Below, piece after piece: positions 2,697-41,301 of a stretch of 58,260 nucleotides of DNA (position 1 is the first letter of the stretch; every line of letters starts with the position of its first letter). The stretch lies in contig JBFLYA010000003.1 in the NCBI GenBank assembly GCA_040757115.1, forward strand, positions 1 to 58,260, given 5' to 3'. This DNA comes from a bacterium. GTDB taxonomy: Bacteria; UBA9089; CG2-30-40-21; SBAY01. The notes under the pieces are model-generated. The model saw only the letters and a list, made by a program, of their open reading frames with translations, did not search any database and had not been told where the DNA came from. The position numbers and the translations under genes were made by a program.

Positions 2697-4535
2697 TTAC
2701 TTTGTTTGAATATCTTCATCATCCTCAAGTAAAAGCAACTCATGGTCTTCTTTGGAATAATTATCTTCTTCAGATGGTTGTTGAGATAGATTCAATTTAT
2801 CTGGAGAAGAAGGTGGCTGTTCCCATTGTGGAGGAACCCCACCTATCCCTGGTGGATATTGACCTGGTTGTTGCGGATAATTTACTCCCCCTATTGGTTG
2901 CTGAGGGGGCGGAGGCGGATAATATCCACCTGCTCCTGATGGAGGTGGATATTGACCTGGTTGTTGTGACCAACCTCTTCCTCGAGTTGGCTGTTGAGGT
3001 GATGAAGGATGGGAGCGGATTCCTTTAATACGAAGTCCAGAACCACTATCCTGTGGTGGAGCTATAGGTGGTTGTTGTGGTGATGGAGGTGGATAAGGGG
3101 GCCATGGATGAGGGCCACCGTATTGTGGTGGATACTGACCCGGTGGAGGAGGTGGATAGTAAACTGGTTGTTGAGGTGGTTGAGGTCCATAATAAGTTCC
3201 TGAAGGCGGAGGAGGTGGACTACCCCATTGAGGAGGGCCACTATATGGCGGTGGATATTGGTCTGGTGGAGGTGGATAATTCCTTACCTGTGGTGAGGTT
3301 GATATATAAGTAGGTTGACCATAGGATGGTCGTTCTCCGATTCCATCAGAAGAAGAAACTCCATGTCTTATAGGTCTCCGAACAGGAGGTGCTATGGGAG
3401 GTATTAATCGTTCTCTCAGTAAAGTATAGATATGGGGAAGAAAGTAAAAGAATATAATGATGCCTAACATAATTGTAAAAGTTATCAGTCTCTCAGGTAT
3501 AATTTCCTGATGAAGAATTTGCTTGCGTTTTTCAGGATCTTCTGGTAGTATTAAACCAGGAATATTAGAAAAATTAATCTTATAAGGGGCTGACTGTACA
3601 TTGTTACTAAGTTGGACCTTATATTCTACAGCATCAACCAATTTTTTCAATTCAAGATTAGTTTTAAAAACAAGTTGATACTCCTTAATAACCCCTAATT
3701 GTATATCTTGATAAATTTGAATAAGTCTATCGCTTGAAGGAGCATAGTAGTAATCACCATGAGACAAAAAAGCAAAATCTTTCAAGATATTCTCATCTAT
3801 ACCAGAATCATTTCTATATCGGGGATTTCCAAATCCTATAGTATAAATAGGAATATTTACCTCTTTAATCTTTTCACAAACTGGATTCACATCTGTCAAA
3901 CCTGTTTCCCCTTCTCTAACTCTAACATCATTCTTTCCATCAGTCAATAAAATAACTATCTGTCTCCCTCCTTGTGGTGATATAGATTCTAATGCTCTGA
4001 TTGTAGCAGAGTATAGGGCTGTGTTATAAGTTGTTGCTTGAAGAAATTCTATTTGGTTTTTCAGTTTTTCCTTATCAGAATAGAATACTATCCTAGAAAC
4101 TTCAGGTACATAACTATTAAAAGCCATTATTGCTACTTTATCGTAGTCCCGCATATTTTCAATAAAATGATAAGCTGATTCTTTAGCAGCATCTATTTTT
4201 CTCTTCCCTTGACCACTATCATTAGCCATACTTCCACTTGTATCTATTGCCAATACTGCAATCAATGGAGTATTACTTTCTCCGATAATAGTTATCTCCT
4301 CGGGAGTTCCTATGTTCTTACCATTTTCAAAAAGAGTAAAATCTTCTTTGACTAATTTTTCACTATAAGGCTTTTTCTCCTCATTAAGAACGGAGACATA
4401 AGCTTTCCCATGAGGACAGTTATCCATTTTCATTTGTCGCAAATGAACTGATGAGATTTCCTCAGCTAAACATCGATTAATCATCATAAAAAGCATCACC
4501 ATTAATATTAAACTAGTTTTCCTTCTCAAAAACAT
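2697..4535 (-). CDS. Single-pass membrane protein: signal peptide, vWA domain, TM helix, long Pro/Gln/Tyr-rich tail
   Basis: N-terminal hydrophobic signal; MIDAS motifs DTSGSM, NTALY, LLTDG; TM LITFTIMLGIIIFFYFL; tail with repeated QYPP/PPPPP. Confidence 0.88.
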   Translation of the reverse strand: MFLRRKTSLILMVMLFMMINRCLAEEISSVHLRQMKMDNCPHGKAYVSVLNEEKKPYSEKLVKEDFTLFENGKNIGTPEEITIIGESNTPLIAVLAIDTSGSMANDSGQGKRKIDAAKESAYHFIENMRDYDKVAIMAFNSYVPEVSRIVFYSDKEKLKNQIEFLQATTYNTALYSATIRALESISPQGGRQIVILLTDGKNDVRVREGETGLTDVNPVCEKIKEVNIPIYTIGFGNPRYRNDSGIDENILKDFAFLSHGDYYYAPSSDRLIQIYQDIQLGVIKEYQLVFKTNLELKKLVDAVEYKVQLSNNVQSAPYKINFSNIPGLILPEDPEKRKQILHQEIIPERLITFTIMLGIIIFFYFLPHIYTLLRERLIPPIAPPVRRPIRHGVSSSDGIGERPSYGQPTYISTSPQVRNYPPPPDQYPPPYSGPPQWGSPPPPPSGTYYGPQPPQQPVYYPPPPPGQYPPQYGGPHPWPPYPPPSPQQPPIAPPQDSGSGLRIKGIRSHPSSPQQPTRGRGWSQQPGQYPPPSGAGGYYPPPPPQQPIGGVNYPQQPGQYPPGIGGVPPQWEQPPSSPDKLNLSQQPSEEDNYSKEDHELLLLEDDEDIQTK

Positions 4536-4541
4536 CTTTCT

Positions 4542-5489
4542 TCACCTCCTAATTTGTTCTCTTGGAGGAAGATTTGAAGAATCACCTGACGAACTTCTTA
4601 CTTTCAGAAATCTAAAGCAGCTACTGCCCAAACAAATAAGGTCTCCATGTTGAAGCTGTTGCTTTCTATCAATTTTATGACCATTTACATAAGTTTCCTC
4701 TCCTTGATTTGGTAGCTCATAAGGTGAGATAAAAAACTGTCTTCCTTCCCAAGAGATTGTTGCATGAAGGGAATCAATAAGTTCATCTCCGACTATTTGA
4801 ATGTTAGCCTTTGAGGAAAATCTACCTGGGTCTCCACTACCAATAATATTTCGAGCGTCACGGTAGAGAGACTTTTTATATTGCTCGCCATACTTTGATG
4901 ATTTATTCCCTTCTACCCCTTGCAAATAAGCATCTGACCCCAAGATACAAGCAAAACTTACTCCTGAAGCAATAGATGCTCCCAGAATAGTAATTCCCCA
5001 TGCCATAGAGACAGTTGGACCAAATATGGTACCCAGAAAGTGATGTATAAAACCTCCTATCAATCCTCCAATAGCTCCACCCAGAAGTCCATTAAGTGCC
5101 CGCCGCATTGACCTCCATCTTATCGCCTCTGCTATACTTACTAAAACACCTAAGGTGGACCATCCAAACATTCTTCCAAAATATGGAATTGTATCTTTGG
5201 TTGCTTCATACAGATAGAAAAATACTACTCCACCTAAACTACCACCAATGATTCCAGTTAACGCTCCCAATAGGAAATCACCAAGACAGGTAGTAATACC
5301 TGAATCCATAATTCTTTCAAGGGCACAAACAAAAGAACCAATGAATATTCCTACCAGACAACCCACAGCAACAGCGGTAATTAGTGGAGAAAATGAAAGG
5401 TCAACTATCCAACACGAGGTAAACCAGCCCAAGAGTCCTGCCAGACAACCTGTAACTCCAAAATAGTATATACTTCTAAAAAAAGTCAT
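4542..5489 (-). CDS. Multi-TM (GxxxG-rich) protein with C-terminal FHA-like domain
   Basis: About six Gly-rich hydrophobic helices, then IIGS...SLHATISW...TYVNG...LQHGDLICLG. Confidence 0.8.
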   Translation of the reverse strand: MTFFRSIYYFGVTGCLAGLLGWFTSCWIVDLSFSPLITAVAVGCLVGIFIGSFVCALERIMDSGITTCLGDFLLGALTGIIGGSLGGVVFFYLYEATKDTIPYFGRMFGWSTLGVLVSIAEAIRWRSMRRALNGLLGGAIGGLIGGFIHHFLGTIFGPTVSMAWGITILGASIASGVSFACILGSDAYLQGVEGNKSSKYGEQYKKSLYRDARNIIGSGDPGRFSSKANIQIVGDELIDSLHATISWEGRQFFISPYELPNQGEETYVNGHKIDRKQQLQHGDLICLGSSCFRFLKVRSSSGDSSNLPPREQIRR

Positions 5490-5492
5490 CTT

Positions 5493-7499
5493 TTATACAC
5501 CTCTTATTTGTGCTTCTAATTCCCTTATTTTTTGTCTTAAGGGAGCATTAGTCTTTGTTCTTTTGACTTCTTCTATAATTTCACTCAACCATTGAGGCAT
5601 TGTAAGAGGAAGCATACTGTAAAAATTAGTTGCCTCAAGAGCCAAAAGCGATTGATAATCATAGATAAGGGGGTCATGATTTGGTTTAAAATCAGCAATA
5701 GCATTTTTCAAATGGTCTATATTTACCTTTTTGGTCTTTGCATATTCAGCCGCGCGTCTTACAATGACCTCAATAGCGGAACCAGTCAAACCTTCTGTCT
5801 CAACGGTTACAAAATCAAAGTCAATACCATCATCATATTCTATTTTTACCTTCTTTTCCATCACTTCAAAGATACTCTTTCTATCCTCCTTATCTGGGGG
5901 TAAAAGGGGTATAACCTTATCAAATCGACGAAGCATAGCCTGGTCCAGAACATCTGGTCGATTAGTTGCGGCTACCCAAATTATCTTACCTCGATTAGAA
6001 TTATCCGACATAAATGTTAATATCTTAGCAAAAATACGCTGGCTTACTCCACTATCTCGACTATCTGTCATCCGAGAACCAAAAGCTTGATCAACTTCAT
6101 CTACAAATACTACTACTGGTGACAGTGCTAGTAAAATATCAAATACCTTAGAAAGATTCCGTTCACTTTCTCCTACCCACATACTGCGTATGTCCTTCAT
6201 TTTCACTAAGTTCATCGTTGCCTCTTTAGCCAGTGCTTCTGCCAGAATAGTTTTACCAGTCCCTGGAGGACCAACTAACAAAATTCCCTTAGGAAGTAAT
6301 TCTACTATGTCTAAAAGGATATTATCGTCTTTTATCTCTTTTTTTTGCTCAAAATATCGTTTTATATCAGCCACTTTCTCCTCAAGAAATTTCTTCACAT
6401 GGTCCAAACCACCTATCGAGTCAAAGCCATGTTTTGGCTCCATCACTTCTAACAAGTTATTACTTTCTGCTTCAATAATTTCCTTCTTCTTCTCTTTCAC
6501 TAAATCATAACTTACATTAATTCCCAGAGCTTTAGCAGAGTTAAAAAGATAATCTAAATCTTTAAGGTTAAACCCTGCGGTTATTTCAGCCAGTCCTTCC
6601 AATGTAGTCCCTTCTTCTAATTTTATTTTAGGCTTAATTTCTTCTAATGCCTTCACAACCTCTTCTAAAGTGGGAATATCTTCACCTGGCACCTTTTCCT
6701 TCTCTGATGTTGAAACTTCTTCTGAAGAGGGAGAACTTTTTTCTTCTGGCATATTTTTCTTTTCAGAGGAAAGAAATCTTAGAAATGCCAATCGTGTTTT
6801 TGCATCTGGTCGATCTATTTTAATAGCCTTACAGCCATAATGAGAATAGATGTCTGGATGGACTGCACCAAGATTTGGAGTTACTAATAGAACTATGTTA
6901 CCAGTATCCTGTCTAATCTTATAGTTCGAAGCCCACCGCTGTAATGTCTCAATCAAGATAATAGCATCTTTATCTTGAGTCCCTGCAGGCAGCAATTTAT
7001 CTACATATTCGATAACGATGGCAGTGCGATGTTCCTTTTGTAACAGAAGATGTTCAAAATTAGGAAAGACTTTCTTAGGGTCTCTGAATGTTTCATCCTG
7101 GGATTGCCTAGCTTGCCTCCCAAATCCTTCAACAACTTTGCGTGACTCTGTTGAAAGGTTTTTTAGTCTTTCTTCATCAGATTTTTCTGGTTCTTCTTCC
7201 TCACCAGCACCAAAAATAGGTAGAGCAAATCGTTTAAGTATGTCTTTTTTTGGCACTAAACCCTCTGGATAGGTAATTCCAGCTGACTGGCAATAGAATA
7301 AGATAATATCATACTTTAATGCCAGTCGCATGGTTAAAAATTCACGCAAGGATAATTTACCTTTTCCTGGCACATAGATAAAATCATTCACATTAAAGTA
7401 GAGAAGAAACATATGAGAGGCATTAGCATTATAGACATTATTAAGTTCTTCCAGCCAGGCAGGAGATTCCCAATTCTCTATAATATTAGTTTCTGACAT
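5493..7499 (-). CDS. AAA+ ATPase, classical clade (Cdc48/Ycf46-like, degenerate N-terminal module plus intact C-terminal module)
   Basis: FDSIGGLD, Walker A GPPGTGKT, pore loop MWVGESE, Walker B VFVDEVD, SRH AATNRPDVLDQAMLRRFD. Confidence 0.92.
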   Translation of the reverse strand: MSETNIIENWESPAWLEELNNVYNANASHMFLLYFNVNDFIYVPGKGKLSLREFLTMRLALKYDIILFYCQSAGITYPEGLVPKKDILKRFALPIFGAGEEEEPEKSDEERLKNLSTESRKVVEGFGRQARQSQDETFRDPKKVFPNFEHLLLQKEHRTAIVIEYVDKLLPAGTQDKDAIILIETLQRWASNYKIRQDTGNIVLLVTPNLGAVHPDIYSHYGCKAIKIDRPDAKTRLAFLRFLSSEKKNMPEEKSSPSSEEVSTSEKEKVPGEDIPTLEEVVKALEEIKPKIKLEEGTTLEGLAEITAGFNLKDLDYLFNSAKALGINVSYDLVKEKKKEIIEAESNNLLEVMEPKHGFDSIGGLDHVKKFLEEKVADIKRYFEQKKEIKDDNILLDIVELLPKGILLVGPPGTGKTILAEALAKEATMNLVKMKDIRSMWVGESERNLSKVFDILLALSPVVVFVDEVDQAFGSRMTDSRDSGVSQRIFAKILTFMSDNSNRGKIIWVAATNRPDVLDQAMLRRFDKVIPLLPPDKEDRKSIFEVMEKKVKIEYDDGIDFDFVTVETEGLTGSAIEVIVRRAAEYAKTKKVNIDHLKNAIADFKPNHDPLIYDYQSLLALEATNFYSMLPLTMPQWLSEIIEEVKRTKTNAPLRQKIRELEAQIRGV

Positions 7500-7502
7500 T
7501 AA

Positions 7503-9239
7503 TTAACTCCTTTCTTTTTCTTGAGGACTAATTTGTTTAACCATAGAGGTAGGAATAGTTTCTTCTAAAAGTTCTACAAAATGTGGGGAGATACAAACTT
7601 CACCTTGGGTATCTACCTCTACAATCCCTTTACCCTCAATCGAAAAAGTTTTGATAACCTTATTTTTACCAATAGTTTCTATTTCTATCTTATCATAGCC
7701 CATTTGGTGGAGTGATAGTAATATTCTATCTACTACTATATCTTGCAAAGTTCGCTCATCTTGAATAAGTTGTGGAATTGTTCCTGTTCCTTCTTTTACG
7801 CCAGTTACCTTATAATTTAAGTATATGCCTCGATTTTTTAACTCATCAAAAAAATGCTGTAACTCGGGTAGACAGGTAGCCTGACCTGCCTCATCGGATT
7901 TAAACCCATCGAGGTCATACAAAATTTCTCCCTCCGCGGAAACATTGACCCTAAAAATTTTCTCTCCTTTTATAGCTTTGTAATATATTCGCTCTTTTAT
8001 TTCAGACTTTTCAATTTCTGTATATTTCATTATTTGAAATACCTCTTCTATCTTTTGACTAATATGTGCCTGAAGATTTTGATTGAGGGTATTAATTGCC
8101 TTTTCTTTAATCTGATTAAATTTCTCCTGAGCATATTTTGCCTGGGACAGAGCATCATCTAATCTACCAGTGCGAAACATCTCTTGAGCTTCAGCTAAAG
8201 TCTGTTTTGCTTCCTCAAAGTTGTCTTTCAAAGTAAGTCTAACAATCTCTCTAACAGATTGAAGTGACTCTTCTTCACTCTTTTCTAACATTTCTATAAT
8301 AATCTCAGCATCTTCTACAGCTTTATCAAAATCTATTTGAATCTGGTTTGTTCTTTTTTCCCAGGTTTCTTTTTCTATCCTCAACCTATTACTTAAGTTA
8401 GACAAATGTTTAGTTATATCTTCCATGTGCTGCCAAACTATCGTGTAATTCTGGTCTTTCCAATTAGTGGTTATATCTCTAATCTCATCTTCTATTCTGC
8501 TAATCTCCTGTTGATTATTAGAAGGAAAAGAACCTGCAATTGTCTCTGTTTCTAATAAATCCAACTCCGCTTTCATTATCATTTCATGAATTTTCTCTGT
8601 CTGCTGATAGTGCTGTTCCTGAAGAACATAAGCTTTCTTCATTGTCTCTTGAAGCACACTTAAGGCTTCTTCTGCAAGACTATAAGAAGATGGAAATTCT
8701 CCTCTCTCTAAATTCTCTTTTCCTCGCTGTTCAATATTAACTATCCTATCTATTGCCTCTTTTTCTACAAATGGCAATCTCTGAACTTTTTCTAACATAA
8801 AATCCACTTCTTGCCAATTCATTGAAATTATTTGTTTAGCTGTTCTTTCCTCAGCCTCCTGGCCTAAAAATTTCAATTCTTCCCTAAATTGCTTTTCTTG
8901 CTGGAGATATTTCTGTCTTCTTTGTTCAATCTCCTGTTGCTCTTTAATAGCCTGTTTATGAGTCTGAAATCGTAATTTTTTATCTTTTCCTCGCTCTTTT
9001 TTGATAACTTCTGCTTTTTTCTGATGTTCTTTAATTAATTTAGTAACTCTCTGTTTTTCTTTCTCAAGCATCTTTTTTACTTTTTCTCTTCGTTTCTGAG
9101 CTATCTCTTGAGCGGTGTTATTAACTACTTCATATAACTTACAACCACAAAAAACCAATCCTTTGGCACCATAATAAACTCCGCTTACTGCTGCCCCTAA
9201 ACAAATTCCTATTACATCTGCTCCCCCTGCACTACTCAT
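7503..9239 (-). CDS. Long coiled-coil protein with C-terminal DUF2997-like segment
   Basis: E/K/Q-rich helical body; FRVNVSAEGEILYDLDGF...TCLPELQHFFDELKNRGI near the C-terminus; AAGGAG RBS; 3 bp from the ATPase start. Confidence 0.7.
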   Translation of the reverse strand: MSSAGGADVIGICLGAAVSGVYYGAKGLVFCGCKLYEVVNNTAQEIAQKRREKVKKMLEKEKQRVTKLIKEHQKKAEVIKKERGKDKKLRFQTHKQAIKEQQEIEQRRQKYLQQEKQFREELKFLGQEAEERTAKQIISMNWQEVDFMLEKVQRLPFVEKEAIDRIVNIEQRGKENLERGEFPSSYSLAEEALSVLQETMKKAYVLQEQHYQQTEKIHEMIMKAELDLLETETIAGSFPSNNQQEISRIEDEIRDITTNWKDQNYTIVWQHMEDITKHLSNLSNRLRIEKETWEKRTNQIQIDFDKAVEDAEIIIEMLEKSEEESLQSVREIVRLTLKDNFEEAKQTLAEAQEMFRTGRLDDALSQAKYAQEKFNQIKEKAINTLNQNLQAHISQKIEEVFQIMKYTEIEKSEIKERIYYKAIKGEKIFRVNVSAEGEILYDLDGFKSDEAGQATCLPELQHFFDELKNRGIYLNYKVTGVKEGTGTIPQLIQDERTLQDIVVDRILLSLHQMGYDKIEIETIGKNKVIKTFSIEGKGIVEVDTQGEVCISPHFVELLEETIPTSMVKQISPQEKERS

Positions 9240-9536: not shown

Positions 9537-10127
9537 TTATAAAGCTCCTTTTGTTGCCTCTTGAGAAATCCTCATCCTGTTCTTCAAATTTTTAACTTCA
9601 TCATTTAAGTCTTTGATTTGCTTTTTCAAGTTTTCATTTTCTGTCTTCAGTTTGTTACACTCATCTACAAGTTCATTATTGACCTTCTGTAAACTCTCCT
9701 TATCTGCATTCACTTTCTTAAGTATTTCTTCTATTTCTTTTACCTTATCTGCTTTCTGGTGATTTTGTTCTTCACTTTGTTGAAGTTTTTGAGATAAGAT
9801 TTCATTCTCCTTTGCTTTTTGAGAGATTAAACCTTCCTTTTCTTTTAATCTCCGCTGAACTTCATTAAGTTCAAATTGAAGGCTATTTATTTCTTGCCTA
9901 TGTTGTGTCTGTAGTATAGTAATCTGACTATTTAAAGAACGATTTTGAGTAGTTAGATTTTTTATTTCAGCCTTATAGCGTTCTATTTCAGTATGTAATT
10001 GTCGAATCTCTTTTTCCTGTCCTCCTAATAAGAGCGATGGGGTCCTACTCATATTAGAAACAGGAGTTGGTTTTCTTTTTCTTCGTACCCGTATATCTTT
10101 TATTTTCACACTCGAACTATTTTGCAT
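9537..10127 (-). CDS. Coiled-coil protein
   Basis: 196 aa; basic N-terminus followed by continuous heptad-like sequence; GGAG RBS. Confidence 0.75.
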   Translation of the reverse strand: MQNSSSVKIKDIRVRRKRKPTPVSNMSRTPSLLLGGQEKEIRQLHTEIERYKAEIKNLTTQNRSLNSQITILQTQHRQEINSLQFELNEVQRRLKEKEGLISQKAKENEILSQKLQQSEEQNHQKADKVKEIEEILKKVNADKESLQKVNNELVDECNKLKTENENLKKQIKDLNDEVKNLKNRMRISQEATKGAL

Positions 10128-10315: not shown

Positions 10316-12208
10316 TCATTTGTTTTCTTCTTTCAAACCTTCATTTCTCCTTACCCCCTCTTCACCACTATCGACATTCTGTAACGACTGGTCTTCCTTA
10401 TTTACATCTGATGGATTAGACATTTCTTCTTTTTTTACACTTGGTTGAAGTGGTTGTTGAGGTGAACCCTCATCCTTTTTTACGGTTGGACCTTTTTTTT
10501 TATCTTCCTTTTCTCTCTTTCTTGTGTTTGTATTCCAATTATTTTGCTGGCCCTTCTTTCTTTCTTCTTGGATTGTAACCTTAACCACCTTACTCCACTC
10601 CCCCTTTTCATCATTACAGCCAATAGTTCTAATTTTATACATAAGGTTTTTCTTTTGTTTTGGTGACCACTCATCGCTATATTCTTTTGAATTCCACGAA
10701 TATATATCTTTTAGTTTTTTAAAATCCTCCTCTCCCACTTTTACCTGAATTTCATAATATTTAACGGAACTATCTAAATTATCATTCCATTTCAAAATCA
10801 CAATTTTGCCATCTTTTTCCAGCTCAGCGTTGAATCCCGTAGGTGCTTCTAGTTTAGGTGGTATTGGTTCCTGTGGTATTGGTGACGAAAACTCTTTCGT
10901 ATAAGATTTATCATTTTGTAACTTGAGTGTTAAAGTATATTTGTAGTCTTTTCCCGGTAAGACATCTGTATCTTTATACTGCCCATTAATTATCTCTTGA
11001 TGACTAAGGGTTAGTGATTTATCATGCTCATTAGATGATGTTCTCTTTAAAATTCCGTCTTTGATTTCTTTTTCATCTACTCCTTTCAACTCCCATTTTA
11101 CAACTAATCCATCTTTAGATAGTTCGGGGCGCAATATATCAAATATATCATTAGAGACTGGATTACTTAGATTATCCTTTTTTTCTTGAGGGAATTCAAC
11201 AGGCCGTTCACTAGGGATTTCAACAGGTTGGAACATAAGGAAGATAAGGTAGATAAAGATGACAGCCATTACAATCATTCCACACCAAAGGATTATTTCC
11301 ATCACATCCTGGAAAGTAATTTCCTCCAGAGATTCAATAAGCTCACCCCAAATTTTTTTAATTGGATTAGGTTTTTTAGGACGGTATTGAGGTTCAGTTT
11401 TCTCATTAGATTGCCGATTTTGTCCTTTTGTAGGAATATTATTAACTCTGCGAGTTGAATAGTTATCCATGCAAGGGGAATAGTCATCCAGATAAAATTC
11501 AGCTCTACATTCTGAGTCTAACCTATCATTTTCCCAGATAAAGTATCCTGCTGTCTTCTTTTTAGGTTGAATAACCAAAGCTACATGCCAGGGCTGCATA
11601 AAATTGGTTTTCGCTAACTCTCGGTCAGGAGGAGAGAGTGAGATATCGTGACTTGGATGACTATGATACCAACCCACTTGTTTAAGATGTGAATACTTCT
11701 CTTGTTGTAGGTTTTTTACCCTATTTTTTTCTTGAGGGGTAAAGACAAAGTGGTCGTATCTGGCATTGTCATACTTCATAGGAATGGCTTCCTCAATATG
11801 AACCATATATGTTTCTCTTCCCATTTTCTTTACTGGAGGAGGCACATACCCTAACAAAATTCCTCCTGTTTCATTAGGAATTTTTTCTTGAGATTGAAAA
11901 AAGATTTTTTTGTAGACCCTCTTCACACAAAAAATTTCTACTGGAGAATTGGATACCTGCCAGGGAATCGTCTCGCCACTTATCTCTGTCTCCTTACTAT
12001 TTCGTATCCCTTTTATTCGTAGATTAGTAACATTTTGGTTCTCTTTCTCTTTACCCAATTCTTTTTCTTTCTCAGGGGGAGGTGACATAGCTGATTGAGA
12101 AGATACTTGACTCTGTCTGGGAATAGAAGGTTGTATAGATCCTATTTTATGTTCCCACTGTTCTAATCTTCTTTGTAACCAATTTTCTTCCTTTTCCTTC
12201 AAGTCCAT
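10316..12208 (-). CDS. JAB/MPN+ (Mov34) metallopeptidase with TM helix and C-terminal FN3-like domains
   Basis: NETGGILLG and JAMM motif GWYHSHPSHDISLSPPD (HxH-x7-S-x2-D); TM ILWCGMIVMAVIFIYLIFLMF; YKDTDVLPGKDYKY and APTGF...VILKW...YKIRT...GEWS. Confidence 0.88.
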   Translation of the reverse strand: MDLKEKEENWLQRRLEQWEHKIGSIQPSIPRQSQVSSQSAMSPPPEKEKELGKEKENQNVTNLRIKGIRNSKETEISGETIPWQVSNSPVEIFCVKRVYKKIFFQSQEKIPNETGGILLGYVPPPVKKMGRETYMVHIEEAIPMKYDNARYDHFVFTPQEKNRVKNLQQEKYSHLKQVGWYHSHPSHDISLSPPDRELAKTNFMQPWHVALVIQPKKKTAGYFIWENDRLDSECRAEFYLDDYSPCMDNYSTRRVNNIPTKGQNRQSNEKTEPQYRPKKPNPIKKIWGELIESLEEITFQDVMEIILWCGMIVMAVIFIYLIFLMFQPVEIPSERPVEFPQEKKDNLSNPVSNDIFDILRPELSKDGLVVKWELKGVDEKEIKDGILKRTSSNEHDKSLTLSHQEIINGQYKDTDVLPGKDYKYTLTLKLQNDKSYTKEFSSPIPQEPIPPKLEAPTGFNAELEKDGKIVILKWNDNLDSSVKYYEIQVKVGEEDFKKLKDIYSWNSKEYSDEWSPKQKKNLMYKIRTIGCNDEKGEWSKVVKVTIQEERKKGQQNNWNTNTRKREKEDKKKGPTVKKDEGSPQQPLQPSVKKEEMSNPSDVNKEDQSLQNVDSGEEGVRRNEGLKEENK

Positions 12209-12218
12209 ACTTCACCTC

Positions 12219-13079
12219 TTATATTTCAAGACTTTGCTTTTTAGTAGATTTCTCTGATGAATCCTTGTGCAATACTATTTTGACCCTTTTCTCTCCTAGT
12301 TTTAAAGGAAGTGTCAGCCCTACTCTACTTAAAGGAAAGAAGTCAGGATGTTTCTCTTTATAAGCCAAATACCATTCTTTGGCTTTAAGATTCATCCTCG
12401 GGTGGTCATCATCGAGGTTTACAGACCAATATTGTATCAATTTACAACACTGGACACAGGCATAAATCAAGTTACTGTCCAGTGGATACCATTCGAAGAA
12501 TAAGCATACATCCCTTTTCTTATCCATATTGGCATTAGGATGAAAAATATCGGTTACCGCGATTACAACTGGTCGAAGAATAGGATAATCTCGTGACAAT
12601 GTTAATCTAAGAATATGTTCATCTTCCTTTATTATTGGTTCTTTCTTATCGTCTAATCCACTAATTCCCTTTATCTTCATCAAAATAATTTCAATCTCTC
12701 CTGGAGATAGCCCCTTCACTCTTAGATGTTCAGGATTAGCCGTTGCTAACCGTAATAATCCAGCCCGGTCTTCTTGAACCCGGTTCGTGTTCTCATAGGC
12801 AGCTACTTCTGATGGGTCATATACTGAAATAACACTTCCTGGTGGGACACCCATGTTTGACAAACTATTATCAAGAAAGAGCTCCTCTTGATTCCAGAAA
12901 ACAGAGTACTGAACCTCTTGTCCCTTTTCATCATAGAGACGGATAGGATATTCTGTTCCTTGAGAGGTTCTGATAAGGTCTCTCAAGACATCTATCAAAG
13001 ATGTCTCATCATCCACTTCTACACTATACTCCTGCTGACCTTTTGGTGTAGTTACTACAAAAATAAAATTATTAATCAT
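12219..13079 (-). CDS. Ubiquitin-like (beta-grasp) domain fused to E2/UBC domain
   Basis: aa 1-94 YSVEVDDETSLIDVL...LDNSLSNMGVPPGSVISV; E2 motifs DYP..RP, IFHPN(180-182), Cys192, W and MNLKAKEWY. Confidence 0.85.
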   Translation of the reverse strand: MINNFIFVVTTPKGQQEYSVEVDDETSLIDVLRDLIRTSQGTEYPIRLYDEKGQEVQYSVFWNQEELFLDNSLSNMGVPPGSVISVYDPSEVAAYENTNRVQEDRAGLLRLATANPEHLRVKGLSPGEIEIILMKIKGISGLDDKKEPIIKEDEHILRLTLSRDYPILRPVVIAVTDIFHPNANMDKKRDVCLFFEWYPLDSNLIYACVQCCKLIQYWSVNLDDDHPRMNLKAKEWYLAYKEKHPDFFPLSRVGLTLPLKLGEKRVKIVLHKDSSEKSTKKQSLEI

Positions 13080-13110: not shown

Positions 13111-14226
13111 TTAACTTGACTTTTGAACGGAATAAGCAGGAAAATCCTCTTCAATCTTCCCCATTTCTCTCATTAAGAAGATTATCAAGATACCATTTGT
13201 TGGCTCCAAATCCAGAAGAGTTTCCGTTTTCTTTATGCTGAGTTTTCTTTCTGCTATTCTCTTTATCAAAGCGGGATTAATTGGTAATACGCAGTAGTTA
13301 TTGCCCACCTCTTTTATTTCAGGGATAAAAACTGGTAATAAATCTACTATTGATACATCTGCTGGCAGCCGTCCTGAATATAGTTTCAACTGAGCAAACA
13401 GAAATGAAACAGCAAATACTGTAACGATAGGTCGAAGAACTAATTCTTCACAAGGAAAGATATTCTGTTCGTAGAGTCGCTTTTCGTTGTCTATCCAAAT
13501 TCTTTTCTCTGGATGAACTAACCGATAATCTGTTATTCGAGATGCCTCTCCCTTATTCCATACTTCATTTGTTAATCTTAGGAAGTCAGGATGGTTAAAT
13601 ATTTGACTTACGGGCTGAAGACAATCTACATCAATCTCCACTCCTCCTTTTTCTCCAAATGTAGTTATCTTCATTTTAATAGACATAGGGTATGCAGTAA
13701 TACTCTCCCCTTCTTCTAAAACAAATGGAGTAGGGTCTTGTGCTTGAAGTAATTGTTTTCTACCCTTAACTAAAATGAAATTATTCCACTTAACATCTTG
13801 TTGTAGATATTGATACAGAGAATAGATAGGATACCTTCCATCCGTAGGGAAATATAATGAAAATTTTTCCCCCTGCCTATCTTTGCTAGTCCAATTAAGG
13901 ATCTCAACTACATCAGGGCTTTTAATCAATAGAAGATTTTCATGATGTCCCCTTAATTGTTCAAGAGAGAGTTTTAGATTTTTAACAATACCCCAGGAAT
14001 TACGGTTGGGAGAAAAAACAGCTACATTAGTTTGCGCTTCTCTCCACTTAATTTCAGCTAAAAGTTGTGTTTTTATGTCTTTCAAAGAGGTATTTGATGG
14101 AAACCCTCTTCTTTGTCTAAAAAGTGATGGTTGACCTTGCAACAACTCAATCCACTGGCACAGTTTATCTTCTTGTATTATCTTCCAATTACCTTCATAG
14201 GTGTATATATTAGGGAATAAATTCAT
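13111..14226 (-). CDS. Probable tandem ubiquitin-like (beta-grasp) repeat protein
   Basis: Up to four ~80-aa units: FPSNTSLKDIK..LSLEQL; FPTD..LEEGESITAYP; IDVDCLQPVSQI..RLYEQNIFPCEELVL; LPADVSIVDLL..TETLLDL. AGGAGG RBS. Confidence 0.55.
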   Translation of the reverse strand: MNLFPNIYTYEGNWKIIQEDKLCQWIELLQGQPSLFRQRRGFPSNTSLKDIKTQLLAEIKWREAQTNVAVFSPNRNSWGIVKNLKLSLEQLRGHHENLLLIKSPDVVEILNWTSKDRQGEKFSLYFPTDGRYPIYSLYQYLQQDVKWNNFILVKGRKQLLQAQDPTPFVLEEGESITAYPMSIKMKITTFGEKGGVEIDVDCLQPVSQIFNHPDFLRLTNEVWNKGEASRITDYRLVHPEKRIWIDNEKRLYEQNIFPCEELVLRPIVTVFAVSFLFAQLKLYSGRLPADVSIVDLLPVFIPEIKEVGNNYCVLPINPALIKRIAERKLSIKKTETLLDLEPTNGILIIFLMREMGKIEEDFPAYSVQKSS

Positions 14227-14250: not shown

Positions 14251-14922
14251 TTAACTCTTCGTCTTTTTATAACTTCTGAGATTAATTTTGCACTCAGGAT
14301 TGAGGCATCTCCAGCGATTAGGTACTCCCCAACAATCTATACATAAGATAGTATCACAGTTAGGGCACTTTCTTAAGTCCAAGCTCTGTCCATCGCTTCC
14401 ACTATTTCTTCGACAGAGTGGACATATATAGTTAGGTATCAATAGAGTATTACCAAGTGCCTCTGGTATAGGTTCAAATTGAGTAGATGGAATAGCTGTT
14501 CTGACTACTTTATCTTTTTTACCATACGCTGGGAAAAATATAATCGTGAGCACCCCTATTATTACTCCTACCGCACTTGCTATTAAAATCAGAGAATGCT
14601 CATCAATGAATTTGTTTAATTCTACTTGAGAGATTTGTAGAATCAAATAAAAGAACAATAGAAAATTTCCTATTCCACAACCTATACCTTGCACTAGAAC
14701 AGTTAGAAGTCTCCACCTTTGAACCGACCTCAGTAGAAGAGCAATAACACATCCTACTACAAATTGGAGAATACCAAATACTATCCATGGAACCTTCACC
14801 CAAAAGAGTATCCCTCCTAATATTGCACCAAATAAGCTTATCACTCCTGAAACACCAAAATTTCTAATCTTATCCATATTCTGTTTTAATCTTCTCATGA
14901 ACAGATTTTTTCTCCTTTTCAT
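14251..14922 (-). CDS. Multi-TM membrane protein with C-terminal RING-like zinc finger (putative E3)
   Basis: About four TM helices, then C-x2-C-x15-C-x2-C-x4-C-x2-CW-x7-C-x4-C (aa 167-211); ATGA overlap with the E1 stop. Confidence 0.75.
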   Translation of the reverse strand: MKRRKNLFMRRLKQNMDKIRNFGVSGVISLFGAILGGILFWVKVPWIVFGILQFVVGCVIALLLRSVQRWRLLTVLVQGIGCGIGNFLLFFYLILQISQVELNKFIDEHSLILIASAVGVIIGVLTIIFFPAYGKKDKVVRTAIPSTQFEPIPEALGNTLLIPNYICPLCRRNSGSDGQSLDLRKCPNCDTILCIDCWGVPNRWRCLNPECKINLRSYKKTKS

Positions 14923-16187
14923 TCAAAATTCATAACCTCCATTTCATCACCAGTCAATTCATAGAATTTACTTATACTTTTCTTTCCATCATCTATTACT
15001 GCCTCTAAGATATCCAGTTGACGCAGTCCTCCTTGTGTTAAGGTCAAATTAAGGAAATCAACATTTTCATCTAACTCACTCACAGACTTAGCTATTTCTT
15101 GAGGTGTCCCACAATGAGAGCAACTTTGATGCTCTATAAATACATACGGGGATTGATAAACCTTCTCAGTCTTTTTGCAATTAGGACAGGAGGCAGAGAT
15201 TACCAAATCATACCAAAGACTAATTCTTGCCTTCTTACCCAAATCCTTTTTAACTTTTTCAAGTAACTCGCCAATAGTGGTAGAATTAGAGTTAAACTCT
15301 TTAACCTCAATTATATCTTTTTCTGGGATAGGGGAACGAATTTGATGAATAAGACACTTTGGGTTACGGCGACGAGTAAATACTTCCATTTTATGGTCTT
15401 GTGTATCTATGTGAATAATCTTATTCAATAATGGTGTTATTTCTTCATTATTCATTAAAATTTTAAGTCCTTCTTGTACCTGAAGAGCACCAATAAGAGA
15501 AGCCATCATAGGTGTAGAAGGGACAAATCCTCTTTTTTCAGATTCTCTCTCAATTTCAGCGCAGATAACCCCTCTGCCTGTTCCTTTTTCCAGAATCTCC
15601 TTTACCATCTCTGATGATAGAGAACAAGCATAACAAGCTCCTGCAGGAACATCAAAAACTGTTACTGCTCCCCGTAAGACATTAACATCATTTAACCCGG
15701 CATCAATCCATGGTTTTTTAACCCGGATACAGGCATCGTTTAAAATAATACGGGGCAGGCGGCTGTCAAAATCACAAAAAATAAGGTCCATTCTACGCAA
15801 TACTCCTAAACCAAGTGAAGCAATATTCCCATGAAAAGTAGCTACTTTAACATCAGGATTAACTTCCTTTATTTGCTCAGCTACTACCTCTACTTTAGAA
15901 CGGCCAATATCTCTTTGGCGAAACATTATAGACCTGGTTAAATTAGAGAGCTCTATAATTTCCTTATCAACAAGTAAAATCTTACCACAGCCAATAAGAG
16001 CTAAGTTTTTAGCCACTTCATTGCCAATGGCTCCTACTCCACCTATCAGAGCCGTACTATTCTTAACCACACCTTGTTTCCACCCGTGGATAGTTTCTAA
16101 TCTAGAATATCTTTCTTTATCCTCATCCTCTTTATCTTTTTTACTGATAGAAATTTGCTTTTTGAGTGTTTTGGGTATTATATCCAT
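14919..16187 (-). CDS. ThiF/MoeB-family E1-like adenylyltransferase with C-terminal zinc-ribbon extension
   Basis: RYSR, GGVGAIGNEVAKNLAL, ELSNLTR, GRSK, CYAC, putative catalytic Cys in VICAE, PKCLIH, CPNC/CSHC. Start placed at ATG 16187 (GAGG RBS, downstream of the promoter). Confidence 0.93.
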   Translation of the reverse strand: MDIIPKTLKKQISISKKDKEDEDKERYSRLETIHGWKQGVVKNSTALIGGVGAIGNEVAKNLALIGCGKILLVDKEIIELSNLTRSIMFRQRDIGRSKVEVVAEQIKEVNPDVKVATFHGNIASLGLGVLRRMDLIFCDFDSRLPRIILNDACIRVKKPWIDAGLNDVNVLRGAVTVFDVPAGACYACSLSSEMVKEILEKGTGRGVICAEIERESEKRGFVPSTPMMASLIGALQVQEGLKILMNNEEITPLLNKIIHIDTQDHKMEVFTRRRNPKCLIHQIRSPIPEKDIIEVKEFNSNSTTIGELLEKVKKDLGKKARISLWYDLVISASCPNCKKTEKVYQSPYVFIEHQSCSHCGTPQEIAKSVSELDENVDFLNLTLTQGGLRQLDILEAVIDDGKKSISKFYELTGDEMEVMNFE

Positions 16188-16207
16188 TTGTGCCTCATTA
16201 TGAAAAT

Positions 16208-16236
16208 ATTTTACCACAAATTTTGTCCTTTGTCAA
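16208..16236 (-). promoter_or_regulatory. Sigma-70 promoter of the Ubl operon
   Basis: TTGACA-17 bp-TAAAAT with extended -10 TG, 20 bp upstream of the E1 ATG. Confidence 0.8.
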
Positions 16237-16872: not shown

Positions 16873-19800
16873 TTATTCCCAGAATCTACCTGTTAGTCTT
16901 AGGTAAAATCCGCTGGCTGAATAACTATCATCAAGTATCTCACCATCTTTGTATTCGATGAGGTTATATCCTAAGACAAATTTAAAGTGGCTGTTAAATC
17001 CAAAACCTAACTCTAAGATAGGATTTAGCTTATAGTCATTGGTCAAATGTTGATGTAGAATTCTATACCCGCCGGTTATATCCAACCTTTCGTTAATATT
17101 ATAAGTTAATCTACCCATTATAAGGTCAATATGAGAAATAATATCCTCTACCTCTATCCTCCTCATCGCATACTTTCCCAAAAGGCTCCATTTATTAGTT
17201 GGAACATAGATAGATTCTAAGGAAGCAATAGCACTTTTATTACTAAACTCATATTTACTCAATAAATTGAATTTATTAGTCTGAGGAGGTCTGTAGGCTA
17301 ATGCAAGTAACAGCTTTGATTCGCAAGAATCAGTTTCTGTCCCGCTATCCTCTTTTTTACTCTTCTCATAGGTATATTTCAAGTAGGTTGTTAATCCGTT
17401 AAGGAATTTCTGTTTTAAGTCTGCAATTAGTAATGCGGTGGAATCATTAACATTTCCCTCTCTGGAGTAAGAATATTTTAGAGAAGAGGTTAAGTCATTA
17501 TTAATTTTTTGGTTAAGTTCAACTTCTCCTGAAATAGTCTCCTCTTTATCCAATTCTTTCCTAATTTCGTTTTTAGCTGACAATTTTGTTTTATCAGTTG
17601 GTGTAAAGTTCACCCCAAATGAATTAGTGGTGGAATCAGTTATCTTCCCTGCACCAATCTCTTTTTCTGCATTATTTGCCGCGGAAATGACTATCTTTGG
17701 ATGTGGTGAATAATCTATTCCAATAGTAGTAGCTATGGATTTGGTCTTCGTCCCTTCGATGTAGTCAGCCTTCCAACCAAGTGCACAGGAGGTATTTAGC
17801 GATACCAATTCAAATAGCTTAGTTATTGCTCCTATGGTAAGGTGATGTTCTCTAAGAAGATGTTTGCCATGTGCCATTTTATTAGTTAAATCATATTGGA
17901 TAGAAGGTGATACCATATCATATTCTGATGTTAATTTGAGGCTAATGTCATGAGTTATCGTATCTAAATCACGATTAATAAAATTATCAGAATCTGTAAG
18001 GCTGTATTTTAATCCAAAATCATGCCTACCTATTGAACCTCTATCTCCTAAAGTAAACATCTGTTTACGGCTCTTGTGAATTTGGTTACTCACCTTATTT
18101 TCTTCTTGAAAATTTGCAAAGAATGTAGAATTATCAAGCTCCTGTTTAAACCCCAGTCCAAATATATCAGTTTTTGTCTTATTTTTCTTGGGCTCATTAG
18201 TAGTTATCTTCTTTTGAACATATAAGGCTTTATCAGTCATTAGCTTGTAATCAACTCGTGAGCCGTATTCTCGGATATCCTTTTGAGTAGTAAGATTAGT
18301 GATGTCATAAAACTCTGGTCCATACTGGTTAAAATCGTCTCTTTCTTTATCAGCAGTAGCCTCAATTTTATTAGAGAAGTTAGCTCCAATTTGATGATAA
18401 AAGGTCTTAACCTTGCATCTATCGTTTGAGTGAGAAGATAAGGTTTCTATAAAAGAGGCAGAGTTGTTAACTTTTGGATTTAATAGTTCTAAGTCTCCAT
18501 CGGTCTGGGCATATTCACCCTTAATAGTAAATTCTTTGCAGGGATTAAAAGAACTATCTAACCCATAAAGGTGGTAGTCAGTTGGAGACTGTTCCTCTTT
18601 GATATAAGTTGTACCTACTTCTAAGCTCTTATGTGGTTTTGTTACTCCACGAAACCCATAAATGGCATGTTTGTAATCTGCACCTATGGGAATATATTCA
18701 TAAATCACTACAATATAATATCTGATTCCTCCACTTTCGATTAAAGGGACAGGCTCTTCAAATATCAACCTTCCTGTATCATAATCCAGGGAATAGTCCT
18801 TATCTTTTTCTTTCTCTATAGTGGCAAAAACTTGTAAGTTTTTCTCATCCCGGGTTTGGATTTTAATCTTTTCACTTCCATCCACAATTGGGCAATGTGT
18901 AAGATAGTAAGGGCCACAAATTCCCCTCCCAGGTATATCATCCCGAGCACTAACTTGTCTTGTAGAGGCACCAAATACAGTAATCCTGGAATTGGCGATA
19001 TGTTTTTCTATCTTTGCTCCGGTAAGACTTCTATGATATGTTGATAATTTATTTTCTCCTAATGCGGTTGAATAATCGCCATAAAGAAGCTCTAAATCCT
19101 TAGATTGTAATTTTAGAAAGATAGGGTCAGAAGATGGAGTGTTATTAACGACTTTACTATCATCACCATAGATTGGATAGTAATCATCTGGATTAGCCGG
19201 AGAGGATAATTTATCCTTGCGAGTTTTCTTAGTATCAAGTGAAGTAGTAAGTTGATATTTATCTTTTAACTTAGTTTTTAAGTAAAAGGCTAAGCATCCT
19301 TTATATCTTGCACTATTTCCATACTTTTTACGAAATGCCTTTATATTTCCAGTGACCGTATCTTCTTCCATTTCAAGCTCTGCTAATCCAATAAAAACAG
19401 GCTTATCTGTGTAAGTAGCAGAGTATCTTTTATCCGCTGCCCTTAAGATACCAAAGTCTAACTTTGCCATTCCATGAGGAGAAAGATCAATAAATTGTGG
19501 CTTAGTAGTACTTAAAGAATACTCATCAGATAAGGTATTTATGTCAATCATTAGCAGGTGACGACCTGGTTTAACCGCTGGAATTGAGTATCTACCTTCA
19601 TCATCAGTAATTACACTCATCCCATTTTCCATAAGGATGCTTACATTACCAATTCCCGCCTCTCTATCTTGCTGTATCCCATCACCATTAGTATCCTCAT
19701 ATACCTTGCCAATTATAATCCCATGCTCTCTAAATACTCCATCTTTAATCCTGACTATTGCAAATACATTAGTTACTACTTTCTCCCCTTTTTCAGCAGT

Positions 19801-20252
19801 GCCCGATACCTCTGCTAAGTTCTTTTGGTCACCAGATTCAGCATCAATCCCAACTAACACCTTGTAAGTTAGTATCTTTTCTTCATTAATTGGGAAATCG
19901 CCAATCTCCCAGGTAAAAGGATTTTTACCTATCGGGTCTTTAAAGCAGTCAGAATTTAACCTACTTGTCCCTTTGATATACTTAAAATTATATGGGAATT
20001 TATCTACTATTTTAACCTGATTTATCTTCCCATAGCCAATATTCTTAACCTTGATGGTATAAGTTATTATATCACCAATCTGAGCGGTTTTATCACTTGC
20101 CGTTTTAATAACCAATAAAGAGGTATTGTGGTCAAGATAGATATCCTTTGTAAGTGTCTGTCCTGAAATCAAATGGAAGGTAGTAGAGGTCTTTGGATAA
20201 TAATAGTCTGCCCTAACTGTAAGATAGTAATATCCTGCGGCTAAATTACTAA
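16873..20252 (-). pseudogene. 5'-truncated duplicate of the large surface/outer-membrane protein gene at 36959-41254
   Basis: Colinear with 36959-40338 at constant offset 20086; homology stops at 20252; lacks the signal peptide and about the first 305 codons; frame otherwise open. Confidence 0.88.
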
Positions 20253-41254: not shown

Positions 41255-41301
41255 TTCTATCACATCCTTGTTGGGTAACTGGGTAATTAACATTCAATCA
41301 G

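Follow-up and report, generated by a model that had tools for sequence, protein, structure and literature searches.

Bacterial operons encoding E1, E2, RING and JAB proteins have been predicted for over a decade, and the description of this prokaryotic core is reportedly to be credited to Burroughs, Iyer and Aravind in 2011. The targets and the wiring of these systems are experimentally open, so a short sequence box shared by their components matters. Here we describe such a box in a 58,260-nucleotide (nt) stretch of DNA, called the window at its full length (contig JBFLYA010000003.1 of the bacterial assembly GCA_040757115.1). The window carries an operon of ten genes, all on the minus strand, predicted to handle ubiquitin-like proteins (Ubls). 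The last gene encodes a 612-residue protein (P0001, open reading frame (ORF) 2697-4535) with a vWA domain, one transmembrane (TM) helix and a long proline-rich tail, and the box, LRIKGIR, lies within that tail. Features of the operon are on the minus strand throughout.

The vWA-MoxR 'FtsH ternary systems', as set out in the relevant passages of Kaur et al. (2020, PMC7159879), resemble the window operon in combining a Ubl-E2 fusion, an E1, a RING-type E3 (in the window a candidate only), a JAB protein, a vWA protein, an FtsH/Cdc48-type AAA+ protein with an additional N-terminal part, and system-specific alpha-helical proteins. Compared with the systems in those passages, however, no MoxR, beta-propeller, EAD1 or caspase effector was found in the window, and the window vWA protein is periplasmic, membrane-anchored and paired with an FHA protein. 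Such a pairing, of an FHA protein with a vWA-plus-beta-sandwich protein, is found in ArnA-ArnB of Sulfolobus acidocaldarius (PMC6509490; structure 8s05, among our Foldseek matches). By the portions of that report that bear on the comparison, ArnAB is cytoplasmic and kinase-driven, whereas the window vWA protein is exported, no kinase is encoded in the window and the FHA domain does not have the usual phosphate-binding residues. Neither the shared box nor this tail is described in the titles, abstracts and passages covered by the literature searches. The kind of operon is already known; the box common to its components appears to be new, and it can be tested as a feature of the system at large. 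SUMO-interacting motifs (SIMs) and the p97/Cdc48 adaptor motifs SHP, VIM and VBM are familiar cases of one short motif carried by many components of a pathway. Assembly through a shared motif is alike there, but the sequence of the box differs, and the comparison is an analogy only.

A basic box in the vWA tail and in Ubl-handling enzymes

The LRIKGIR box of the vWA protein occupies positions 3015..3035 (residues 501-507). A second LRIKGIR is found in the TM-JAB protein, within its N-terminal extension (12002..12022, residues 63-69 of ORF 10316-12208), and two related boxes were found in the same operon: VKIKDIR at the N-terminus of a 196-residue coiled-coil protein (10089..10109, ORF 9537-10127), and KRVKIVL in the C-terminal extension of a Ubl-E2 fusion (12270..12290, ORF 12219-13079). 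At the DNA level the LRIKGIR copies have distinct third bases in six of their seven codons and are therefore not a recent DNA duplicate. The pattern [LVIM][RK]I[KR][GDSN]IR occurs four times in 8.63 million residues of six-frame translation of this genome, three times in ORFs of the operon and once in a frame of 10 residues. Exact 7-mers common to P0001 and other ORFs of at least 80 residues were found at seven places in 1.58 million residues. Two of these are in vWA paralogues, four are chance-like, and the remaining one, the only one within the operon, is the LRIKGIR of the JAB protein. The odds that a chance 7-mer match would land in the 3.7 thousand residues of the operon are about 0.01. 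The LRIKGIR box is non-random.

Related operons were obtained by searching Anaerolineae with an E2, which yielded L202 and L203, and by a phylum search with the Ubl-E2 of these, which yielded L204-L208, L209 and L210. L202-L208 are seven full operons of an Anaerolineae type, and L209 and L210 belong to a shorter subtype. The gene order in the seven is E1, TM zinc-finger protein, Ubl-E2, Ubl, JAB, TM-FHA and vWA, the last two being separate and adjacent, as in the window. The pattern R-[IV]-K-[LIFG] occurs three times in L202 and six times in L203 against 0.2 expected (P=0.0025 and P<0.0005, respectively). Two regular expressions were fixed after L202 and L203 had been analysed and before L204-L208 were fetched. 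With the broad one, the five later operons gave 3, 4, 5, 6 and 3 matches, or 21 against 4.5 expected from shuffles, and all were terminal: those in E1, Ubl-E2 and vWA fall within the last ~45 residues, and those in JAB are among the first residues of the protein. Taking the seven operons together, a box is present in the vWA tail and in the Ubl-E2 C-terminus of every one, in the E1 C-terminus of six and in JAB of three, four further JAB N-termini carrying near-variants that the regular expression missed. It is found in none of the seven TM-FHA proteins and none of the seven TM zinc-finger proteins. The KRVKIVL of the window sits where the Ubl-E2 C-termini of these operons have an ERVK[LI] box (EKVRL in L205). 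The termini in L210, where the queries used detected no FHA or vWA gene, are without a box; L210 is the one informative locus of the shorter subtype, L209 being a 3.2-kb contig that is uninformative on this point.

A different group of relatives, the loci L011-L016, was reached through the AAA+ gene and is described below. There the vWA tail of L016, and that of the near-identical L176, ends in a related box, the case of L011 is doubtful, and the small coiled-coil proteins keep an N-terminal motif with an invariant Ile. In these comparisons the conserved element of the vWA tail is a basic box of the general form R-[IV]-[KR]-hydrophobic.

The box is carried by both the receptor tail and the Ubl-handling enzymes, which argues for a docking motif with one common receptor. 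We consider it probable, by a modest measure, that the box is a system-wide docking motif and that the disordered tail is a flexible tether presenting it. Through the box, the tagging enzymes and the receptor tail would meet at a single receptor within the membrane module, and docking would couple sensing by the vWA domain outside to Ubl conjugation or removal inside. Docking, the identity of the receptor and the direction of signalling are all steps that we infer.

Several observations made alongside concern the same termini. The E1 proteins of L202, L204 and L207 end in a box followed by Arg-Gly or Arg-Gly-Gly, like the C-terminal tail of ubiquitin, and the Ubls of the same three operons end in Thr-Ala-Gly. 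LRIKGIR itself was considered as an LRLRGG-type site for JAB cleavage and rejected, since its Gly is not conserved and the Ubl C-termini of the family end in VA[GA] or TAG. In P0199/P0200 a similar stretch N-terminal of the JAB domain had been aligned with LRIKGIR; L197, a relative that is 66% identical over the 163 aligned residues, does not conserve it, and it was put down to chance.

The exported vWA domain and its cytoplasmic tail

P0001 starts with a signal peptide or signal anchor (4464..4535, residues 1-24), recognised by a hydrophobic window at residues 9-27 and a model helix at 2-23; its counterpart in alignments with fused orthologues is the TM helix behind their FHA domain. An AlphaFold2 model of the protein, built on a 34-row alignment, gave predicted local distance difference test (pLDDT) values above 90 for most of residues 30-290 and below 50 for almost all of residues 388-612. 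By its secondary structure and pLDDT, beta-sandwich strands occupy residues 27-83 (4287..4457), and the sandwich is completed by strands at residues 286-320, C-terminal of the vWA domain. The vWA domain itself (3687..4265, residues 91-283) is defined by Pfam (PF00092, residues 94-274, 61.5 bits against a cut-off of 23.8), by the columns of the metal ion-dependent adhesion site (MIDAS), by pLDDT above 90 and by Foldseek. The MIDAS residues D98, S100 and S102 of the DxSxS motif (4230-4244), together with T172 and D199, are all present, and their columns are invariant in comparison with six orthologues and invariant or nearly so in the 34-row alignment. Foldseek matches to vWA chains, of Rossmann-like alpha/beta fold, reached E-values as low as 1e-13. 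The best matches were all vWA-plus-sandwich proteins, namely inter-alpha-inhibitor heavy chain 1 (ITIH1), the archaeal ArnAB complex, a streptococcal minor pilin and BatB, and the layout of P0001 is like that of ITIH1 and ArnB-type chains.

A single TM helix follows (3405..3494, residues 348-377 in the model, 344-374 by hydropathy). The net charge is -1 before this helix and +4 after it, and the vWA domain is therefore placed outside, in the periplasm, and the tail inside, in the cytoplasm. The host cell is probably diderm, given a gene for an outer-membrane efflux protein in the window. Immediately after the membrane lies a conserved juxtamembrane segment of the type ERL-x-P-x3-PP (3366..3416, residues 374-390), which aligns with the fused proteins of the Sericytochromatia-type loci. 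The initial annotation of this gene, made from the letters of the window, had proposed an external vWA domain with an intact MIDAS and one TM helix, and the Pfam score, the MIDAS residues, the topology and the model bear this out. It had also named the protein as the likely substrate or sensor of the system. A sensor fits an exported vWA domain with a MIDAS that forms the split-off half of a 4TM-FHA/vWA protein; a role as substrate is taken up below with the lysine of the box. P0001 is probably the periplasmic, outward-facing sensor subunit, with a putative metal-dependent ligand site, of a two-protein transmembrane module whose other member is the 4TM-FHA protein; the module would belong to a rare membrane-anchored bacterial Ubl conjugation system.

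The tail comprises residues 373-612, with 68 Pro, 27 Gln, 26 Gly, 18 Tyr and 4 Trp among its 240 residues. The motifs first picked out in it were all found in place: PPPY at residue 428, PPQY at 469, LRIKGIR at 501 and QQPGQYPP at 524 and 555. The low pLDDT beyond residue 388 agrees with the disorder that had been expected of it. Two spacers rich in Pro, Gln, Tyr and Gly flank the box. Spacer 1 (3045..3329, residues 403-497), recognised by composition, shuffles and pLDDT below 50, holds the PPxY matches (3243-3254 and 3120-3131). Spacer 2 (2799..3014, residues 508-579) holds the two QQPGQYPP copies (2943-2966 and 2850-2873), which lie 93 nt apart. The DNA repeat beneath these copies was confirmed (2850-2876 and 2943-2969, 89% identical over 27 nt), and its spacing looks like a duplication of 31 codons. 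The protein ends, as had been noted, in an acidic segment (2700..2780, residues 586-612), with a run of four leucines, 11 D/E among the final 27 residues and a short helix of low confidence at 607-611 in the AlphaFold2 model. The tail has four lysines, at 504, 580, 595 and 612, so that K504, inside the box, is the sole lysine between residues 373 and 579.

Motif frequencies in the tail were compared with those in shuffles of the tail sequence. PPxY was seen twice against 1.43 expected (P=0.43). The units that are over-represented are YPP (8 against 1.4), QYPP (4 against 0.17), GQYPP (3 against 0.02) and QQP (7 against 0.83); the non-random repeat unit of the tail is YPP/GQYPP, not PPxY. A 100-residue window of the tail is the joint most proline-rich in the 4.3-Mb genome, and it is the only one of P/Q/Y/G type among the top 25 of the 18+ windows listed. 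No WW-like reader domain was detected by Pfam in the ten proteins of the operon, and the P/Q/Y-rich stretch is absent from all 13 orthologous tails examined (L011-L016 and L202-L208). A search of the protein Atlas with the tail gave no usable match by features and matched disordered regions only (TM-score 0.16-0.22).

These results dispose of the idea of a eukaryote-like PPxY tail, as the caution attached to it at the outset, that the PPxY matches might be chance, had allowed. Conservation of the tail among orthologues divides in the same way: the proline-rich part is absent from them and the LRIKGIR core is kept. The proposal that the tail is multivalent finds weak support, with a single box here and one or two in relatives. 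The proline-rich bulk is a lineage-specific insertion, probably a spacer grown by duplication of short units, and the functional core of the cytoplasmic tail would be the LRIKGIR box.

Candidate receptors and competing explanations

A common receptor for the box should occur wherever boxes do and need not carry one, which makes the TM-FHA protein, the zinc-finger protein and the Ubl candidates. The leading candidate, possible if still doubtful, is the atypical FHA domain of P0002, the 4TM-FHA protein encoded beside P0001; the alternatives are the Ubl, the E2 and the zinc-finger protein. Canonical FHA domains, which in an ArnA/ArnB-type module attach to the phosphorylated C-terminus of a cytoplasmic vWA protein alongside kinase and phosphatase partners, bind phosphate through an Arg, in a Gly-Arg pattern, and a Ser. 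The P0002 family has Gly-Ser at the first of these positions and Ala or Asp at the second. FHA is favoured because it is a peptide-binding fold with no box of its own, because of this atypical phosphate site and the lack of a kinase in the window, because L210 combines box-free termini with the absence of an FHA gene by the queries used, and because of the precedent of ArnA-ArnB. In Sulfolobus the C-terminus of ArnB, the vWA partner, is bound by ArnA, the FHA partner (PMC6509490).

A more detailed scheme, decidedly unlikely as a whole, has the FHA domain as a phospho-independent hub. It would hold the tail box at rest, and binding of a ligand at the MIDAS would lead it to exchange that box for those of E1, Ubl-E2 and JAB, so that an outside signal switches membrane tagging on; in this lineage, extraction or remodelling of the tagged membrane proteins by the AAA+ protein could follow, in the manner of endoplasmic reticulum-associated degradation (ERAD). 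The AAA+ protein and the large coiled-coil protein were judged unlikely as receptors of the box: L202-L208 carry boxes, yet queries for AAA+ and coiled-coil genes found none in the parts of L202 and L203 that were searched (these queries were not run on L204-L208).

A number of results weigh against docking or against the evidence for it. Because the regular expressions took their form from L202 and L203, replication can be claimed for L204-L208 only; these five are kin of L202 (E2 69-88% identical) and hence not independent, and two of them, taken singly, are marginal with the broad expression (P=0.07). In the window the broad expression gave seven matches against 3.0 expected (P=0.03), a weak enrichment, and four of its matches there fall in folded cores, two each in the AAA+ core and in core strands of the E2. 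None of the four tails of L012-L015 has a box, and the motif of the small coiled-coil proteins can be aligned in two registers. FHA homologues stand beside Ser/Thr kinases in a metagenome-assembled genome (MAG) of Anaerolineae, which leaves room for a phospho-dependent mode. No computation predicted binding of the box. A complex prediction for the AAA+ protein, Ubl-E2 and tail residues 486-527 scored 0.02 against a mark of 0.32, in a job that left out FHA and was unlike those on which the tool is calibrated. In a fold model of the natural L016 fusion, which has six long helices before the FHA strands, the tail box was unplaced, with pLDDT below 50.

The box could instead be a consensus for conjugation, at which the E2, with the zinc-finger E3, puts the Ubl on the lysine, so that the vWA tail is tagged at K504 and the enzymes tag themselves. 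The E2 Ubc9 reads such a consensus, psi-K-x-E. K504 is alone in 207 tail residues, the central residue is Lys in most matches to the strict expression in L202-L208 and the window, and the operon supplies both a membrane E3 candidate and a Cdc48/FtsH-type AAA+ protein. Several orthologous boxes nevertheless have Arg in place of the lysine. This holds for the JAB protein of L202, for the small coiled-coil motif in L012-L015, for the first box in L208 and for the two boxes of the vWA protein in L207. Many boxes, too, are the final residues of their proteins, a position that fits docking better than modification; we regard conjugation at the box as unlikely. The same placement on E1, E2, peptidase and target would be explained if the box were a counterpart of the SIM, a basic beta-strand that adds to an acidic beta-grasp domain. 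Its alternating basic and hydrophobic residues suit an added strand, Ubl domains are acidic, and the operon encodes a probable tandem-Ubl protein (a weak lead). A Ubl-binding role is strongly to be doubted, since L210 has E1, E2 and JAB but no terminal boxes (a Ubl gene was not searched for there).

Alternation of K/R with hydrophobic residues at protein termini would also be expected of amphipathic basic strands by which soluble enzymes adhere to the anionic inner membrane, the box of the vWA tail merely lying back on that membrane, and the boxes do co-occur with a membrane module. With 128 residues between it and the TM helix and a long proline-rich spacer on either side, the vWA box is oddly placed for such a strand, and the exact identity of seven residues in two proteins favours a specific reader, so that simple membrane adhesion is very improbable. 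What we find scarcely credible is that the tail acts through its bulk, as a eukaryote-like array of proline-rich ligands (PPxY, polyproline) for a WW-, SH3- or GYF-like domain or as a driver of condensates through Tyr and Trp. The 68 Pro, 18 Tyr and 4 Trp and the strong over-representation of YPP and GQYPP units are in keeping with such a role, but PPxY is at chance level, Pfam detects no reader domain in the operon, none of the 13 orthologous tails is alike, and the 93-nt spacing of the repeat suggests simple duplication. Docking of the box to a common receptor is the reading that we retain.

The operon, its relatives and the meaning of the box

Upstream of the vWA gene, and ahead of it in the direction of transcription, the operon begins with an E1 (14919-16217; ThiF in Pfam, 157 bits). 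This is followed by P0009, a membrane protein that is RING-like by pattern only (14251-14922), with hydrophobic segments over residues 21-135 and eight C-terminal Cys in a C-x2-C pattern that no Pfam RING model matched. The next gene, at 13111-14226, encodes a 371-residue protein for which there was no Pfam, PADLOC or NCBIfam match; its nearest neighbours in the protein Atlas are tandem ubiquitin-like proteins (feature score 0.84-0.86, TM-score 0.33-0.39), which are weak leads to a tandem-Ubl-like protein. In the Ubl-E2 fusion (12219-13079), the Ubl was called by alignment to the Ubls of L011-L016, and the E2 by its HPN-x-C motif and conserved columns, Pfam giving only 17.5 bits, below the cut-off. 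The JAB peptidase (10316-12208) carries the JAMM motif as HxH-x7-S-x2-D, one TM helix and an outer C-terminal part. Two coiled-coil proteins, of 196 (9537-10127) and 578 residues (7503-9239), precede a Cdc48/PAN/FtsH-type AAA+ protein (5493-7499), which has one classic AAA domain at residues 406-530, with Cdc48, PAN and FtsH as the nearest profiles, and an N-terminal 300 residues outside it; the FtsH-type AAA+ protein of the ternary systems has an inactive N-terminal copy. The 4TM-FHA protein P0002 (4542-5489) has its FHA domain at residues 219-288 (Pfam, 37.6 bits) and hydrophobic segments at 26-62, 72-93 and 164-185, which correspond to about four TM helices by alignment to fused orthologues.

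The FHA gene stops at a TGA, and 6 nt separate this stop from the in-frame ATG of the vWA gene (4533-4544), with an AGGAGG 9 nt ahead of the latter. Occasional readthrough of this TGA would recreate a fused FHA-vWA form, as in six related loci. PADLOC gave domain-level matches only (JAB, E1-E2 and AAA+) and none for six of the ten operon proteins, every NCBIfam match of these proteins was below its curated cut-off, and neither resource put them in a named family or defence system. No kinase or phosphatase was found among the proteins of the window. Two genes for large DUF11 and SdrD B-like proteins lie on the minus strand as well; the one at 16873-20172 immediately precedes the E1 gene, and the other is at 36959-41293. 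About 2 kb beyond the other end of the operon, at 160-677 on the plus strand, a small gene, coding for an 'Unstab_antitox' domain (PF09720), and the first part of a 113-residue ORF overlap, and the two are probably a toxin-antitoxin pair.

A word-based search of 5.8 billion proteins found no close homologue of the vWA protein, the best match having 32% identity at 43% coverage, in the vWA domain only. No full-length match was present in 40 related genomes, and the specific N-terminal part of the AAA+ protein is in none of 24 other genomes of its phylum. For these reasons the operon looks acquired by its host. Word-based searches with P0006 returned distant JAB-TM proteins and with P0007 nothing. 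A metagenome scan with an AAA+ alignment, one of whose two patterns was the generic Walker A, had only generic AAA+ loci among the matches listed. Among the sequencing runs listed, the sequence occurs in one DNA run, which may be the source sample, and in no RNA run.

The AAA+ protein with its specific N-terminal 300 residues belongs to a widespread family, of which 80 loci were kept from genome contigs. An E1 lies within 10 kb of the AAA+ gene in seven of the 80, six of which are L011-L016, labelled Sericytochromatia, Tanganyikabacteria or 'bacterium', where Ubl, E2 and JAB genes occur too. In these six the gene beside AAA+ encodes a single protein with four TM helices, an FHA-like domain, a TM helix, a vWA domain, a further TM helix and a short tail. 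P0002 aligns to the N-terminal half and P0001 to the C-terminal half of these fused proteins and of P0013. The fused protein was present in 8 of 401 genomes sampled from the Sericytochromatia-type phylum. L011-L016 are like the window in their AAA+ protein (38-40% identity), in the order of JAB, small coiled-coil and large coiled-coil genes, in the MIDAS and in the juxtamembrane ERL-x-P-x3-PP segment. They differ in having FHA and vWA in one polypeptide, in tails of 35-100 residues without a proline-rich region, and in the restriction of the box to L016/L176 (L011 being doubtful). In three Ktedonobacteria-type loci a gene homologous to that of the large coiled-coil protein comes after AAA+, and no Ubl genes were found there by the queries used.

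The best matches to the window vWA (1e-29), FHA (5e-27), JAB (2e-22) and E2 (6e-16) proteins come from operons of the L202-L208 type. These share with the window the gene set and the order at its ends (E1 first, TM-FHA and then vWA last), the Ubl-E2 fusion, the split between TM-FHA and vWA, and the box in the vWA tail. The window operon adds the tandem-Ubl-like protein, the two coiled-coil proteins and AAA+, no AAA+ or coiled-coil gene having been found in the stretches of L202 and L203 that were searched. A membrane anchor on its JAB protein and the lack of a box-bearing extension on its E1 also set it apart, and its vWA tail of 240 residues compares with ~40-60 in the vWA proteins of L202-L208, which are 376-404 residues long. 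By gene content, the window operon looks like an Anaerolineae-type core to which the coiled-coil/AAA+ block of the L011-L016 group has been added.

The two membrane genes also occur in another setting. In an Anaerolineae MAG (L183 and L184), proteins with a signal peptide, a vWA domain, a TM helix and one or two zinc ribbons in the cytoplasmic tail adjoin 4TM-FHA genes; Ser/Thr kinase genes are close by, and no Ubl genes were found. These loci are a kinase-linked version of the same two-gene TM-FHA/vWA membrane module. Their zinc-ribbon tails mark the vWA tail as the variable, system-specific end of a module that is widespread. The vWA gene of the window is an ordinary member of this module, and its expanded tail is a local oddity.

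A 'eukaryote-like' proline-rich tail in a bacterial protein can, as a matter of caution, be a recent spacer around one conserved motif. Peptides and mutants of the box offer a handle for finding the common receptor and for testing whether an exported vWA protein controls Ubl tagging. If the FHA domain is indeed the hub, an outside signal would switch Ubl tagging at the membrane of a bacterium, in what would be, together with the AAA+ protein, an ERAD-like circuit.

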